Source: a virus | Lineage: Duplodnaviria; Heunggongvirae; Uroviricota; Caudoviricetes | Strand: one strand, 5' to 3' | Virus record (IMG/VR): IMGVR_UViG_2778261534_000002 | DNA length: 52,137 nt | Shown here: positions 9,899 to 50,824 of the stretch, piece by piece | Numbering within the stretch: the first letter of the stretch is position 1 | Layout of the letters: each line of letters begins with the position of its first letter | Made by a program: the position numbers and the translations under genes | Notes under the pieces: generated by a model | Database searches by the model: none | What the model saw: only the letters and a program-made list of their open reading frames with translations | What the model was told of the DNA's origin: nothing

Positions 9899-10084
9899 CT
9901 GCATCATCGACTGAAGTCATCCATTGCTGAAATTTTTAGTTGATCTTCCATGTTTTCAGGCTTATATTCATGCCGTCGTAGCAAATTCTGCGACCGGGTT
10001 TGACAGCCTGAATACTTACGCGGACAACCGCACATTTCCGATATTGCGGTATTTTTGTGTCCGTAAAACCACGTTACGCCCGAA

Positions 10085-10180
10085 TTATGGTGGGGCGTGA
10101 TGGGGAGGCTTCGGCCTGCTGGTTTCGTAAGTGCCAGTCTGTCAACCCTGTCACGTCCTGCCACCTGTTTGACAGCGGGT
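10085..10180 (+). ncRNA. c4-like antisense RNA candidate
   Basis: structured leader upstream of icd-like gene; TCGTAAGT (10125-10132) is complementary to ACTTACGA at the icd RBS (10197-10204); GGC-ttcg-GCC tetraloop hairpin; boundaries approximate. Confidence 0.3.
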
Positions 10181-10214
10181 CGCAGGTTGTTTATCAACTT
10201 ACGAGGCCGTAACT

Positions 10215-10439
10215 ATGGTTAATGCCAATCCTTGCTCACGCCCAGAATTCATCTGGCGTTTCCACTCCCTGCAAAAACACTGCGATCACTTCGCAATTGC
10301 CGCAACCGAAAAAGAAGCCCGTTCTCTGATCCCTGATCAGTATGGTGTTCTTACTGGTCGTTTCTCTACTTCCCCACAACCAAACACTAATCCCTGGTAT
10401 CGCAATATTACCAATCCCGGAATTGCGGAGGCACACTGA
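10215..10439 (+). CDS. Icd-like small protein of immunity module 1
   Basis: 74 aa; paralog of 49339..49554 (shared EFIWRF and AATE-EARS motifs); stop overlaps ant start (TGATG). Confidence 0.5.
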   Translation: MVNANPCSRPEFIWRFHSLQKHCDHFAIAATEKEARSLIPDQYGVLTGRFSTSPQPNTNPWYRNITNPGIAEAH

Positions 10440-11146
10440 TGGAAATCTGCATTCTTGAAAAGCCATCAATGACCAGCATTGAGATCGCGGAGCTGGTGGG
10501 AAGTCGCCCGGATAACGTTAAACGCACTATTGAACGCTTGAGTAAATCAGGTGTTATTCCACTTCCTCCAATGGAGGTTTCCGAAAATATCAATAACTTA
10601 GGATTTAAAGTTAAAAATTCACACTACGTCTTCGAAGGCGAGCAAGGCAAGCGTGACAGTATCATTGTCGTTGCGCAGCTTTCTCCCGAATTTACCGCCC
10701 GGCTGGTGGACCGCTGGCGCGAACTGGAAGAACAAGTACGCCAGCCGTTGACCGAAATAGAGATGATCGCCGCAATGGCTGCAAATGCAGTTCAGCAGCA
10801 AAAGCGGCTTCATGTTGTTGAGTCAAAGGTTAGCCAGGTGGTAGAAACCGTCGAGCAAATCAAGAAGGGCAACATGCCAGATGGTTACATTGGCTACCGC
10901 CAGCTGGCTGCGAAATGTGGCCTGACCGAAGCCAAATGCCGCAACCTTGTCAACGCTTACCGGATTCCCACCGATACACATGAGTTTTTAACTCCAGAGG
11001 GGGTATTGTCGCGTCGTTCCATCGTGGCCTTATCTCCCTTCATGAATGCTTTTAACCGGATGATGTCGGAGGCTGAACACCGAGGAAAACGCTGGTATCA
11101 CCCCAAAATGGGGCAATTCCAGGTGATCGGTTGGGGAGGTGAGTGA
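10439..11146 (+). CDS. ant: antirepressor (Ant-like)
   Basis: 235 aa; N-terminal SIEIAELVG...PDNVKRTIE region typical of Rha/Ant-type phage regulators; paralog of 49554..50480; translationally coupled to icd-like gene. Confidence 0.55.
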   Translation: MEICILEKPSMTSIEIAELVGSRPDNVKRTIERLSKSGVIPLPPMEVSENINNLGFKVKNSHYVFEGEQGKRDSIIVVAQLSPEFTARLVDRWRELEEQVRQPLTEIEMIAAMAANAVQQQKRLHVVESKVSQVVETVEQIKKGNMPDGYIGYRQLAAKCGLTEAKCRNLVNAYRIPTDTHEFLTPEGVLSRRSIVALSPFMNAFNRMMSEAEHRGKRWYHPKMGQFQVIGWGGE

Positions 11147-11343
11147 TGGACATCATGCAGGCGGTAAAAAAAATCAGGGAAGGACAGGCTGAAGTGTGCC
11201 GCCGTAAAGCATGGAGTGTTGGTGTATGGGCCTGGCCTGATAATTACTCTACTACCGGATGGTTTTGTATTAATGGACTCCAGGTCCGGGAAGTTGATTT
11301 ATCGACGGCTGATATAGTCGGTAATGATTGGATCGTGACTTGA
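11143..11343 (+). CDS. small DUF2829-like protein
   Basis: 66 aa; CRRKAW...GNDWIVT signature shared with four other domains in the window; start overlaps ant stop. Confidence 0.45.
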   Translation: MMDIMQAVKKIREGQAEVCRRKAWSVGVWAWPDNYSTTGWFCINGLQVREVDLSTADIVGNDWIVT

Positions 11344-11351
11344 AGCGTGAT

Positions 11352-11376
11352 GCCCCGGCCTGGCCGGGGCTTTTTT
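11352..11376. terminator. bidirectional intrinsic terminator
   Basis: GCCCCGGCC-tgg-CCGGGGC then TTTTTT, between convergent genes. Confidence 0.65.
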
Positions 11377-20227: not shown

Positions 20228-20428
20228 TTGCGTTTACTTAACGTGGCAGAACTTATCCCTGCAGGAACTAATGCTATCGCTCGTCGTCGCTCATGGCAGC
20301 AGGCTCTATGTATTGAGATCTCGAAACGTATCAATGGAAGTTTTGAAGCTCGCAATATTGTTACTGGCGATAAGGTTCACATAACCCCGGAAAGTGCAAG
20401 CGCTGATGATTGGGAGTTTGTACATTGA
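20228..20428 (+). CDS. small DUF2829-like protein
   Basis: 66 aa; ARRRSW ... ADDWEFV signature as in the other DUF2829-like domains. Confidence 0.4.
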   Translation: MRLLNVAELIPAGTNAIARRRSWQQALCIEISKRINGSFEARNIVTGDKVHITPESASADDWEFVH

Positions 20429-23280: not shown

Positions 23281-23357
23281 GATGGTGTAGCTCAGTAGGA
23301 TAGAGCAGCAGCCTTCTAAGCTGTCGGTCGGTGGTTCGAATCCACCCACCATCGCCA
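23281..23357 (+). tRNA. tRNA-Arg (anticodon UCU)
   Basis: 77 nt; 7-bp acceptor stem GATGGTG/CACCATC, anticodon loop CTTCTAA, T-loop GGTTCGAATCC, 3' CCA. Confidence 0.9.
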
Positions 23358-23362
23358 ATTTA

Positions 23363-23449
23363 GGGGAGTTAGTCCGTAGGGGTAGCGGGGTAGACTGTAA
23401 ATCTACTGTCATTGCGACTCGGGTGGTTCGACTCCATCACTCCCCACCA
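23363..23449 (+). tRNA. tRNA-Tyr (anticodon GUA), long variable arm
   Basis: 87 nt; acceptor GGGGAGT/ACTCCCC, anticodon arm GTAGA-CTGTAAA-TCTAC, variable-arm stem GTC/GAC, 3' CCA; D-arm atypical. Confidence 0.7.
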
Positions 23450-23453
23450 AATT

Positions 23454-23529
23454 GCCGGTTTAGCTCAGTTGGTAGAGCGCCTGCCTTGTAAGCAGGATGT
23501 CAGCGGTTCGAGTCCGTTAACCGGCACCA
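23454..23529 (+). tRNA. tRNA-Thr (anticodon UGU)
   Basis: 76 nt; TAGCTCAGTTGGTAGAGC D-arm, anticodon loop CTTGTAA, T-loop GGTTCGAGTCC, 3' CCA. Confidence 0.9.
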
Positions 23530-25480: not shown

Positions 25481-25556
25481 GGCCCTTTAGCTCAGTGGTT
25501 AGAGCTGGCGACTCATAATCGCACGGTCACCGGTTCAAGTCCGGTAGGGGCCACCA
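25481..25556 (+). tRNA. tRNA-Ile2 (anticodon CAU, lysidine type) or tRNA-Met
   Basis: 76 nt; very close to E. coli ileX-type sequence as recalled (GGCCC.TTAGCTCAGTGGTTAGAGC...CTCATAA...GGTTCAAGTCC...GGGGCCACCA). Confidence 0.85.
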
Positions 25557-49025: not shown

Positions 49026-49131
49026 AAATACAGACTGTTGCGCCCTGGCATTATCGTGGGGTATATTTCTACGGCACCTTAGAAAAACGGGTGCCGGGAT
49101 TGGAACCCCGGATAATGTCAAAGGCGACACA

Positions 49132-49153
49132 GACGCCGAAAGCGTCTTTTTTT
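49132..49153 (+). terminator. rho-independent terminator
   Basis: GACGC-cgaaa-GCGTC followed by TTTTTTT. Confidence 0.65.
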
Positions 49154-49169
49154 GTGTCATGCCATCGCA

Positions 49170-49300
49170 CAGCCATACGTAGCGTTTAGCTCAGAGATCA
49201 ATGGTAGTGCTGGCTGGGCTGCCGAAAGGCAGGCCGGTTCCCTTTGACGCCGGTAGTTCCAACCCAGTCAGTGCTACCGCCATTGAGATTGGAACCTCAC
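49170..49300 (+). ncRNA. c4-like antisense RNA candidate (module 2)
   Basis: structured leader upstream of second icd-like gene; CCTTTGAC (49232-49239) is complementary to GTCAAAGG at the icd RBS (49311-49318); CTGCC-gaaa-GGCAG hairpin; boundaries approximate. Confidence 0.3.
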
Positions 49301-49338: not shown

Positions 49339-49554
49339 ATGGCTACTATCCCCACCCCAACTCATTCTGAATTTATCTGGCGTTTCTATTCCTGCCAAAA
49401 ACACCTCTATATCTGCGTCATGGCTGCAACCGAAGCAGAAGCGCGCTCATACCTTCCCGAAGAACCCTGCATTTTTGCTGCTCGCTTCACTCTTGATGCG
49501 ATGGAGATCCTCAATTACTGGAATCTGCCGATGAACTGCGTGGAGGTGCACTGA
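49339..49554 (+). CDS. Icd-like small protein of immunity module 2
   Basis: 71 aa; paralog of 10215..10439; SD AAGGAGG; stop overlaps ant start. Confidence 0.5.
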   Translation: MATIPTPTHSEFIWRFYSCQKHLYICVMAATEAEARSYLPEEPCIFAARFTLDAMEILNYWNLPMNCVEVH

Positions 49555-50480
49555 TGAATCTGTCCATCTCTCAAAAAGCGACAATGACCAGCATTGAGAT
49601 CGCGGAACTGGTAGGTAAGCGCCCTGATAACGTTAAACGCACCATTGAACACCTGGCGGAACGGGGGGTAATATCTTTTCCTCAAATTGAGGAAAAGCCC
49701 ACCGCAGGCCGCCCGGCGAGCTATTACGTCTTCGAAGGCGAGCAAGGCAAGCGCGATAGTATTGTCGTCGTCGCACAGCTCTCTCCCGAATTTACCGCCC
49801 GGCTGGTGGACCGCTGGCGCGAACTGGAGAATGCCCGGGTACAGTTAAAATCAAAAGCCGAAATCCTGGCTGAAATGGCGCAAATGCATCTTGAGCATGA
49901 ACGCCGGATCAACGCCGTTAATGCCCAGGTAGCCGAAGTATCGGCACAAGTGTCCAAAGTCGCTGAAACCGTCGAGCAAATCAAGAAAGGCAATATGCCG
50001 GAAGGCTACATTGGCTACCGCCAGCTGGCGGCGAAATGTGGCCTGACTGAAGCCAAATGCCGCAACCTTGTCAACGCTTACCGGATTCCCACCGATACGC
50101 ATGAGTTTTTAACTCCAGATGGTTTGCTTGCGAGACGCTCCATTGTGGCCCTGGCCCCCTTCCGGAAAGCCTTTAAGCAGGTGATGTCGGAGGCAGAACC
50201 ACGCAATAAACGCTGGTATCATCCAAAGATGGGGATGTTTCAGGCAATCCACCATCCTGTGCCTGAAAGTCCAAAGGCAAACCTGTCGTTGCATACCGCC
50301 AGAGAGAGGATTAAAACAGGGTATGCAATCGTATGCCGTCGAGCATCTTGGCCTGAAGGTGTATGGGTATGGCCCGAAGGTGGATCACGAAAGCACTGGC
50401 GCACTATCCGGGATGGGAAAATCCATGCGATTGATTTAGCTCCAGAGGATGTTGTTGCTACGGACTGGATTGTTAGTTAA
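49554..50480 (+). CDS. antirepressor (Ant-like) fused to C-terminal DUF2829-like domain
   Basis: 308 aa; first ~235 aa paralogous to 10439..11146; last ~60 aa (CRRASWPEGVW ... VATDWIVS) paralogous to the separate 66-aa ORF 11143..11343. Confidence 0.55.
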   Translation: MNLSISQKATMTSIEIAELVGKRPDNVKRTIEHLAERGVISFPQIEEKPTAGRPASYYVFEGEQGKRDSIVVVAQLSPEFTARLVDRWRELENARVQLKSKAEILAEMAQMHLEHERRINAVNAQVAEVSAQVSKVAETVEQIKKGNMPEGYIGYRQLAAKCGLTEAKCRNLVNAYRIPTDTHEFLTPDGLLARRSIVALAPFRKAFKQVMSEAEPRNKRWYHPKMGMFQAIHHPVPESPKANLSLHTARERIKTGYAIVCRRASWPEGVWVWPEGGSRKHWRTIRDGKIHAIDLAPEDVVATDWIVS

Positions 50481-50488
50481 TTACTGTT

Positions 50489-50510
50489 GCCCCGGCCTGT
50501 CCGGGGCTTT
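50489..50510 (+). terminator. terminator-like hairpin
   Basis: GCCCCGGCC-tgt-CCGGGGC, near-identical to the hairpin at 11352; only a short T-run follows. Confidence 0.45.
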
Positions 50511-50539: not shown

Positions 50540-50824
50540 ATGAAGAAAATAGATTTCACTTACTCTGCTGCCACAATCCAGCGACGTTTCCGTCTCATAA
50601 GGGAAGTGGAACTATCAAAAAACTGGTATCAAATTCTACTGGATGAAGAGTTTTCACTGATGGTTATAGCAGAAAAATTGGCTATGCCGAATGACCGGCA
50701 CAAGGTCATAGCCAGCCTGGATCTGGTGACAAACAGATACTGGGAATCCGAGGAACTACTTGAAGTTGGCTTGATACGCGAGATGATAGAACAGGCTGTT
50801 CCCCTCCACTTACAGCAACCATAA
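50540..50824 (+). CDS. hypothetical protein
   Basis: 94-aa ORF downstream of immunity module 2. Confidence 0.4.
   Translation: MKKIDFTYSAATIQRRFRLIREVELSKNWYQILLDEEFSLMVIAEKLAMPNDRHKVIASLDLVTNRYWESEELLEVGLIREMIEQAVPLHLQQP

Follow-up and report, generated by a model that had tools for sequence, protein, structure and literature searches.

The question raised by this locus is how one and the same pair of protein sequences comes to be encoded by a single gene at one place of a viral genome and by two genes at another. The window, i.e., the whole 52,137-nt stretch of viral DNA (IMG/VR virus record IMGVR_UViG_2778261534_000002), in which positions are counted from the first letter, contains two modules, each with a gene in the position of the P1 antirepressor gene ant and a sequence resembling the family PF11195 (Tad2-like, formerly DUF2829). 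The first-pass annotation had pointed out that the two sequences are fused in module 2 but are separate, coupled genes in module 1, and had proposed either a fusion or fission event or a frameshift in one copy. Our reading, to which we assign a probability of roughly 70%, is that this is a genuine and old fusion or fission difference between two operons of the immI type of phage P1, both controlled by a C4 antisense RNA and both carrying a Tad2-like 3' cargo.

The open reading frames (ORFs) agree with the difference as described. In module 1, ant-1 (10439..11146; this and all other module features given below are on the + strand) encodes 235 aa and is followed by a small Tad2-like ORF at 11146..11343, which is assigned to phrog_7385 and is 65 aa long from its ATG; the 66 aa reported earlier are obtained when counting from the GTG at 11143. 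At the junction (ggGGAGGtgagTGATGgac), the ant stop codon TGA (11144-11146) shares one base with the ATG (11146-11148), which confirms the TGATG overlap, and a GGAGG Shine-Dalgarno (SD) sequence (11135-11139) lies within the last ant codons, the whole forming a translational coupling signal (11135..11148). Since the same device, GGAGG-N5-TGATG, also couples icd to ant in both modules, the junction between ant and the small ORF is the coupling signal of the operon used again, and not an accident.

In module 2, a single ORF (49554..50480) encodes 308 aa. By BLASTP, this fused protein matches Ant-1 with 156 of 237 residues identical (66%, E=8e-112), the match ending at fused residue 232, and its residues 244-308 match the small ORF without gaps (25/65 identical, 38%, E=2e-17), so the sequences are homologous, as had been claimed. 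The fused gene is composed of an Ant core (residues 1-232, 49554..50249), a Pro-rich linker of 11 residues, HHPVPESPKAN (50250..50282), which has no counterpart in module 1 when the modules are aligned, and the Tad2-like domain (residues 244-308) with the stop codon (50283..50480). We also considered whether an internal start could yield a free domain from the fused gene and rejected this, since the frame has neither ATG nor GTG after M228 but only a TTG, which is 12 nt away from a weak AAGG.

At the nucleotide level, the two copies of the Tad2-like domain are 49.7% identical, with 58%, 57% and 34% identity at codon positions 1, 2 and 3, respectively, the third being near saturation. Judged from the sequences, the homology of the domain between the modules is clear in protein and old in DNA. 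At the junctions there is no alignable DNA between the two modules, the module-2 linker DNA having no similarity to the module-1 junction, and hence no single or recent indel connects the two states. A nucleotide alignment of the two C-terminal regions had been suggested as a way to locate the indel; it confirms the homology as an old one, but there is no indel that could be located.

Both states are conserved across genomes. We compared 12 module-1 loci, consisting of the window and 11 plasmid or phage loci (L002, L004-L006, L008, L024-L029) of 91-99.9% identity, and in all of them (12/12) the split junction, including the SD, the TGATG and the tail IGWGGE before the stop codon, is intact, two of the loci carrying a single synonymous T/C change. 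The split state is also annotated as two genes in plasmids and in Escherichia phage D6, a P1-like plasmid prophage to which the window is closely related (DNA identity of 99.3% in module 1 and 97.2% in module 2). The fused frame is preserved in 7/7 module-2 loci, in which the ratio of non-synonymous to synonymous substitution rates (dN/dS) of the C-terminal domain is 0.09-0.15, with a proportion of synonymous differences (pS) of up to 0.65, indicating purifying selection. At a coverage of >=80%, module 1 is found in 110 plasmids and module 2 in 92 plasmids; the fused protein is present in hundreds of ~90-kb E. coli or Salmonella contigs, the fused gene is 100% identical in at least five plasmids, and the cluster of the 65-aa protein has 165 member sequences. 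Thus, in terms of the "Rosetta stone" pattern of gene fusion and fission, both components are homologous and each arrangement is conserved in independent genomes.

It might still be supposed that one of the states is an artefact or a recent lesion, such as a sequencing or assembly frameshift or a pseudogene, or that module 1 uses programmed frameshifting, since a single-base insertion just 5' of the module-1 TGA would join both frames. This is very improbable, because both states recur in independent complete plasmids as well as in phage D6, the fused gene is identical in the plasmids mentioned above, and the linker DNA of module 2 is unlike the module-1 junction. Programmed frameshifting in module 1 was rejected on separate grounds: just before its start, the frame of the small ORF is interrupted by a TGA (11140-11142), which leaves the ribosome no overlap for slipping. 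The two states are a genuine, long-standing fusion/fission difference, and a frameshift or assembly error is excluded; of the two origins originally proposed, the former stands and the latter is dropped. The fusion or fission in itself is ordinary phage mosaicism and is already visible, uninterpreted, in the D6 annotation.

Among the homologues found, a module-1-type domain was never seen within a long protein, and module-2-type domains occur alone only as fragments. Such "stand-alone" module-2 domains of 81-98 aa were considered as a third state and rejected: of the two with examined context, P0005 is a 3' remnant next to an integrase and an insertion sequence (IS) element, and P0003 goes back to an internal deletion within ant. 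On other plasmids (L015-L018), a tyrosine integrase and an IS element adjoin an 81-aa 3' remnant of the module-2 gene, and in a D6-like contig (L031) an internal deletion splits ant into parts of 67 and 98 aa. Natural damage to the fused domain was also observed: in a Shigella flexneri plasmid (L019; CP058777, 516-1457), the invariant Trp that is aligned with W25 of the Tad2 protein of phage SPO1 is changed to Arg, and P0114 has a fused domain without seven residues (WPEGVWV).

The two modules are paralogous operons with the order C4 antisense RNA, icd, ant, Tad2-like sequence and hairpin, located in a D6-like P1-type plasmid prophage. They are immI-type operons, because a C4 RNA detected by Rfam precedes each icd and a1/b1 targets are found. 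The C4 RNAs (RF01695, gathering score 45) are at 10083..10168 in module 1 (69.6 bits) and at 49197..49284 in module 2 (77.1 bits), and in both modules the RNA is encoded upstream in the same transcription unit. The two RNAs are markedly unlike each other: the module-1 copy is very close to P1 c4 in an alignment, and the module-2 copy is a diverged allele. The a1/b1 target sites of the C4 RNA (RF03163, 55.9 bits) lie in the module-1 leader at 9962..10014; in module 2, Rfam called no c4-a1b1 element. The segment covering c4 and the start of icd (window ~9955-10326) has 86-92% DNA identity to the immI region of P1. The Icd-like ORFs, each translationally coupled to the next gene, are icd-1 (10215..10439, 74 aa; D6 orf19, "Icd-like") and icd-2 (49339..49554, 71 aa; D6 orf83), and the RefSeq annotation of P1 describes icd as "apparently required for expression of ant". 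That D6-like plasmids have a second c4-icd region has been pointed out before (PMC6799933); no mention of the fusion or of the small ORF was found in that paper.

At the 3' end, module 1 has an intrinsic terminator, GCCCCGGCCTGGCCGGGGC followed by TTTTTT (11352..11370, terminator call), and module 2 has a hairpin, GCCCCGGCCTGTCCGGGGC followed by just TTT (50489..50507), that is not called as a terminator. The two stem-loops are identical at 18 of 19 positions, although the adjoining upstream coding DNA is only ~50% identical. As the T-run is found in the module-1 copy alone, read-through from module 2 into the pmgF-like gene (50540-50824) seems possible. Just 5' of the module-2 C4 RNA, there is an isrK-like RNA (RF01394, 62.7 bits; 49074-49152, +), which carries a terminator-like hairpin at 49131-49147.

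A third configuration was found in the distant relatives obtained by exhaustive searching, P0129 (96 aa, from a Raoultella ornithinolytica plasmid, L010) and P0130 (68 aa, L011), both on contigs of roughly 88-110 kb. There, a minimal cassette (L010, 3752-4291; L011, 3746-4207) consists of the a1/b1 sites, the C4 RNA, a Tad2-like gene starting ~45-50 nt downstream of the C4 RNA, and a terminator, with no icd or ant near the Tad2-like gene. The Tad2-like domain thus appears to be a recurrent autonomous cargo of C4-controlled cassettes that occurs alone, coupled to Ant, or fused to it. Its presence alone behind C4 in two plasmid lineages is the best evidence we have for an independent function, beyond that of a mere part of Ant.

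The identity of the domain was examined by several methods. For most members tested, PF11195 is the top or only Pfam family (it is second for P0130), with the whole profile spanned and E-values from 6e-5 to 0.35. As a comparison sequence we used SPO1 Tad2 (gp34.65), which was located in the phage genome. By hhalign, the family is aligned end to end with this protein (E=1.1e-3), and by BLASTP the C-terminal motif of the family, IHAxxxxxxDVxAxDWxIVS, is matched to it as well (DGKIHAIDLAPEDVVATDW-IVS against DNKIHAWVPSQTDVLAEDWDIVS, 13/23 identical, E=7e-4). The Tad2/DUF2829 fold consists of a helix alpha1 followed by an antiparallel sheet of beta1-beta5, with a short helix before beta5. When an AlphaFold2 (AF2) model of the small domain was used as a Foldseek query, the top 13 PDB matches were Tad2 structures (probability 0.75-0.97), and the named proteins among the top matches in BFVD were "DUF2829" or "Thoeris anti-defense 2-like", some of them 60-66 aa long; the model, though of low confidence, retrieves the Tad2/DUF2829 family in three libraries. 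Twelve core residues are invariant across lineages that are only 29-40% identical. The ligand contacts of SPO1 Tad2 are W25, N26, W73 and D79 (10.1101/2023.05.01.538930). In the hhalign alignment, W25 corresponds to W23 and D79 to D56, both of which are invariant in the family.

The protein in the ant position is of a different kind from what its name suggests. Ant-1 is a Rha-type protein with a winged-helix domain, a coiled coil and a second helix-turn-helix (HTH)-like domain, and it matches phrog_63, "anti-repressor Ant" (E=1.4e-47; D6 orf18). Against the Rha family model (PF09669, Phage_pRha; gathering score 29.9 bits), the fused protein, with 29.9 bits, is exactly at the cutoff, and Ant-1, with 26.4 bits, is below it; NCBI names the fused protein "Rha family transcriptional regulator". 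Homology to P1 Ant1/Ant2 is not detectable by BLASTP (E=0.28 for the fused protein and 0.26 for the small ORF). "Ant" is therefore used here as a name that follows gene position and the phrog_63 label, and antagonism of C1 by the product is putative. In the AF2 model of the full-length fused protein, Ant has a predicted 65-residue helix (78-144), and there are two coiled-coil alleles of Ant that differ by a heptad-sized indel of 7 aa.

The ant paralogues (10439-11146 and 49554-50249) are mosaic: the winged-helix segment (~residues 22-67) has at least five alleles that are common to both modules, and DNA stretches of 92-97% identity adjoin stretches of 43-47%. A metagenome contig (L032, 3001-3921) has the order repL, icd (74 aa), a hybrid fused ant and a pmgF-like gene, in which the hybrid has the N-terminus of module 1 and the C-terminus of module 2, the product expected of recombination between the two direct-repeat ant copies.

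In P1, the C4 RNA blocks translation of icd, and expression of ant depends on icd translation. By analogy, the Tad2-like polypeptide would be made, together with Ant, only upon escape of the operon from C4 repression, that is, when the phage infects a naive or heteroimmune cell or when derepression occurs; lysogens would not produce it. In module 1, it would be a separate 65-aa protein whose translation is coupled to ant termination by the SD and TGATG (the GGAGG-N4-5-TGATG device), with its stoichiometry set through termination and reinitiation at TGATG. In module 2, the domain would be tethered to Ant via the Pro-rich linker, the peptide bond fixing a 1:1 ratio, and the long Ant helix, if formed as modelled, could gather the tethered domains. 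The domain would then be an autonomous module that was recruited to Ant, probably by fusion. Its likeliest activity, which we propose only tentatively, might be Tad2-like binding of a small nucleotide-type signal, i.e., that of an anti-defence sponge acting at the exit from, or bypass of, immunity.

Several results weigh against the reading of two C4-controlled operons with a Tad2-like cargo. To begin with the identity of the domain, the PF11195 scores of 11.9-23.9 bits (11.9-16.5 for D6-type copies) are below the cutoff of 25: the stand-alone ORF has 15.9 bits, the fused domain 12.4, P0001 16.5, P0130 14.0 and P0129 23.9, and none reaches the gathering threshold, which the controls exceed with 85.8 bits (SPO1 Tad2) and 80 bits (a canonical copy in the window, see below). 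The hhalign probabilities against two Tad2 domains are 21% (SPO1 Tad2) and 3%. The mean predicted local distance difference test (pLDDT) score of the AF2 model is 68 for the small domain and 57 for the full-length fused protein, whose C-terminal domain is below 50, so that this model gives rough boundaries only. HMMER profile searches of PDB chains gave no match to any solved Tad2 chain.

With every sequence statistic below threshold and a structural model of low confidence, the resemblance to Tad2/DUF2829 might be convergent or due to chance, the domain being a small alpha+beta module without relation to Tad2, from a family that is narrow and lineage-specific. Exhaustive scanning of 1.84 billion representatives with HMMER yielded just six proteins, none of them an annotated Tad2; the family is narrow, and a deep alignment was out of reach. 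In 50,697 phage records, a tblastn search with the domain found D6 alone; word-indexed homologue searches gave only close relatives and fragments, and PADLOC and NCBIfam searches gave nothing informative. However, independent methods agree, with end-to-end alignments (Pfam, as the top match for most members; Foldseek against PDB and BFVD; and hhalign to two Tad2 domains), and the BLASTP match of the C-terminal motif points to Tad2 again, so we give chance resemblance a rather small share of the probability. Taking sequence and model together, the small domain is likely to be a shortened, divergent Tad2-like domain, possibly with another ligand or assembly. The earlier label "DUF2829-like" is thus appropriate as a statement of remote homology, but not as a Pfam assignment.

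The functional residues are a further point on this side. N26 of SPO1 Tad2 is replaced by S or P, and W73 by V (module 1), I (module 2), Y (P0129) or F (P0130), leaving two of the four contacts, and the beta2-beta3 loop with helix alpha2, the dimer interface in SPO1 Tad2, is missing from the family; for these reasons, the oligomer and the ligand may differ or be absent. Because of the missed PF11195 threshold and the loss of two of the four ligand residues, we call the domain "Tad2-like" and refrain from calling it "a Tad2". Moreover, a canonical Tad2-like protein of 225 aa is encoded in the same genome (34233-34910, +).

The absence of N26, W73 and alpha2, together with the canonical gene elsewhere, favours an explanation in which the Tad2-like fold was co-opted as an accessory of Ant, i.e., an oligomerisation, repressor-contact or ligand-sensing domain, and is not a sponge; fusion and coupling would then be a "Rosetta stone" sign of contact with Ant. 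Both layouts keep Ant and the domain co-expressed, purifying selection on the fused copy is strong, the predicted Ant helix and the heptad-sized indel suggest a coiled-coil oligomer able to assemble the domains, and the P1 antirepressor is, by its annotation, likewise a two-polypeptide complex (Ant1/Ant2). Nevertheless, this explanation, the main rival of the sponge and hardly less probable than it, seems to us possible but on the whole unlikely: the domain alone behind C4, without icd or ant nearby, in two related plasmid lineages argues for a function without Ant, and the stand-alone partner in module 1 shows no sign of recent constraint.

That apparent lack of constraint is itself evidence against our reading. 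In the 12 module-1 loci, the stand-alone ORF has 15 non-synonymous and 4 synonymous changes, which is the neutral expectation (binomial p=1.0), and two of the changes, G13E and G26D, fall on family-invariant glycines. The adjoining genes in the same loci differ sharply, with 15:36 in the C-terminal part of ant (Fisher p=3e-4) and 3:18 in icd (p=8e-5). Accordingly, the module-1 ORF might be a decaying or redundant remnant left after fission or module duplication, with the fused copy alone functional, and the rare truncated variants P0006, P0008 and P0131 fit this picture. We consider it improbable, as the ORF, SD and TGATG are intact in all 12 loci, the 65-aa cluster is large, and the twelve invariant core residues in lineages of 29-40% identity imply long-term constraint on stand-alone forms. 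The 15:4 ratio may reflect relaxed constraint, diversifying selection or the inflation of dN/dS at short time scales, and its comparison with ant is confounded in that ant diversity consists largely of old alleles shuffled by recombination, that of the small ORF consists of recent mutations, and the counts are small.

Finally, the four lineages of the domain are about equidistant (29-40% identity) and do not settle the direction of the event. Most Tad2 proteins are stand-alone, as are three of the four lineages here, and parsimony therefore favours a fusion in the module-2 lineage; we infer that the polarity was probably fusion rather than fission. A point counting against this polarity is the N-terminal tail of P0129 (24 residues), which faintly resembles the module-2 fusion linker (H-x-L-x-x-S-x-K).

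The canonical Tad2-like protein at 34233-34910 matches PF11195 with 80 bits (E=1.8e-22) over residues 141-224 and keeps the W-N, W and D ligand residues; its N-terminal 140 residues are without family assignment. It is 74% identical to the product of a gene of the P1-like phage SJ46 and is common to P1-like phages. A 2025 preprint reports "Tad2 AcrIIA7" in 93% of D6-like elements without specifying the gene scored (10.1101/2025.09.12.675607), which is probably this one. A 66-aa ORF at 20228-20428 (+; D6 orf11), between pmgM- and pmgR-like genes, has no Pfam match but is aligned by hhalign to the family of the ant-linked domain (E=1.2e-4, probability 55%) and has the motifs RRxSW ... DDWEFV; it may be a fourth Tad2-like ORF of this genome. 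Four tRNA genes found by Rfam (23281-23354, 23363-23446, 23454-23526 and 25481-25553, all +) agree with the tRNA region that has been described for D6-like plasmids.

In the literature searched, the connection to Tad2, the linkage to C4 and the existence of three architectures appear to be new. When two proteins are fused in one paralogue and tightly coupled in translation in the other, this is a classic indication that they work together. In the present case, one partner is encoded in the antirepressor position of a P1-type immunity operon, and the other is related to Tad2, which to our knowledge is the most widespread of the sponge families by which phages capture bacterial immune signals. 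Should the domain bind a signalling nucleotide, this would be the first anti-defence module under the control of antisense-RNA (C4) immunity, a sponge kept silent in the lysogen and produced only on escape from, or bypass of, immunity. In that case, the Tad2 family would also gain a short form overlooked by standard models, and the fused and free states would be a natural experiment on how well a sponge oligomer tolerates tethering. If it binds no ligand, a known sponge fold would still have been recruited as part of a regulator. A bolder proposal, which we regard as a long shot, is that the Tad2 fold has a dedicated, hitherto unrecognised branch residing, in three architectures, in the C4 operons of D6-like plasmid prophages and their relatives, and that the fused antirepressor binds a host immune nucleotide and so wires the lysis-lysogeny switch to abortive-infection signalling, either neutralising the signal at derepression or taking it as a cue to leave a doomed cell. 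D6-like plasmid prophages are frequent in clinical E. coli, Shigella and Salmonella.

Among the closest known systems is phage D6 (RefSeq NC_050154; genome of Gilcrease & Casjens 2018), which has the same genes in the same order in both modules. Its module-1 set, orf19 (icd-like), orf18 ("anti-repressor Ant", 235 aa) and orf17 (65 aa, annotated merely as "hypothetical protein"), adjoins repL and darB, and its module-2 set, orf83 (icd-like) and orf82 ("anti-repressor Ant", 313 aa), adjoins ref and simB-like genes. The fused protein of the window is identical to orf82 from ~residue 60 through the end; the difference is that orf82, with 313 aa against 308 aa, has another N-terminal winged-helix allele. 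Neither the fusion or fission nor the DUF2829 link was found in the D6 annotation or in the accessible literature, which does not include the D6 genome paper.

The immI operon of P1 and P7 (c4 antisense RNA, icd, ant1/ant2) is similar in having the C4 RNA with its a1/b1 targets, an Icd homologue and the stop/start overlap between icd and ant, and in its position, module 1 being beside repL and module 2 beside ref and simB-like genes. The P1 antirepressor consists of two polypeptides (Ant1 and Ant2), as here Ant is accompanied by a small protein. Unlike P1, which has one immI module, the genomes considered here have two immI-type modules each, with a 3' Tad2-like cargo that is absent from P1 and, in the ant position, a Rha/Roi-type protein without detectable similarity to P1 Ant. 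With the Rha family (PF09669) and Roi of HK97 and HK022, this protein shares the N-terminal winged-helix domain, whereas its coiled coil, second HTH-like domain and Tad2-like domain fall outside the Rha model.

The Tad2/DUF2829 family, represented by SPO1 Tad2 (gp34.65), ModTad2 and HgmTad2/AcrIIA7, resembles the domain described here in its small size and its occurrence in phages, in the N-terminal motif A-x-x-x-(I/L)-x-x-G-x-x-(V)-x-R-x-x-W and the C-terminal motif D-(I/V)-x-x-x-D-W-x-(I/V), and in the conserved equivalents of W25 and D79; the family itself includes short (60-66 aa) and multi-domain (147-226 aa) members. A Tad2 in the full sense is a homotetramer by which an immune signalling nucleotide is sequestered and the phage is rescued from Thoeris, CBASS or Pycsar. 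The present domain differs from it in scoring under the Pfam gathering threshold, in lacking the beta2-beta3 loop with alpha2, and in the replacement of N26 and W73. It also differs in its setting, since it is found inside an immunity operon controlled by an antisense RNA, and one of its copies is fused to a Rha-type regulator.

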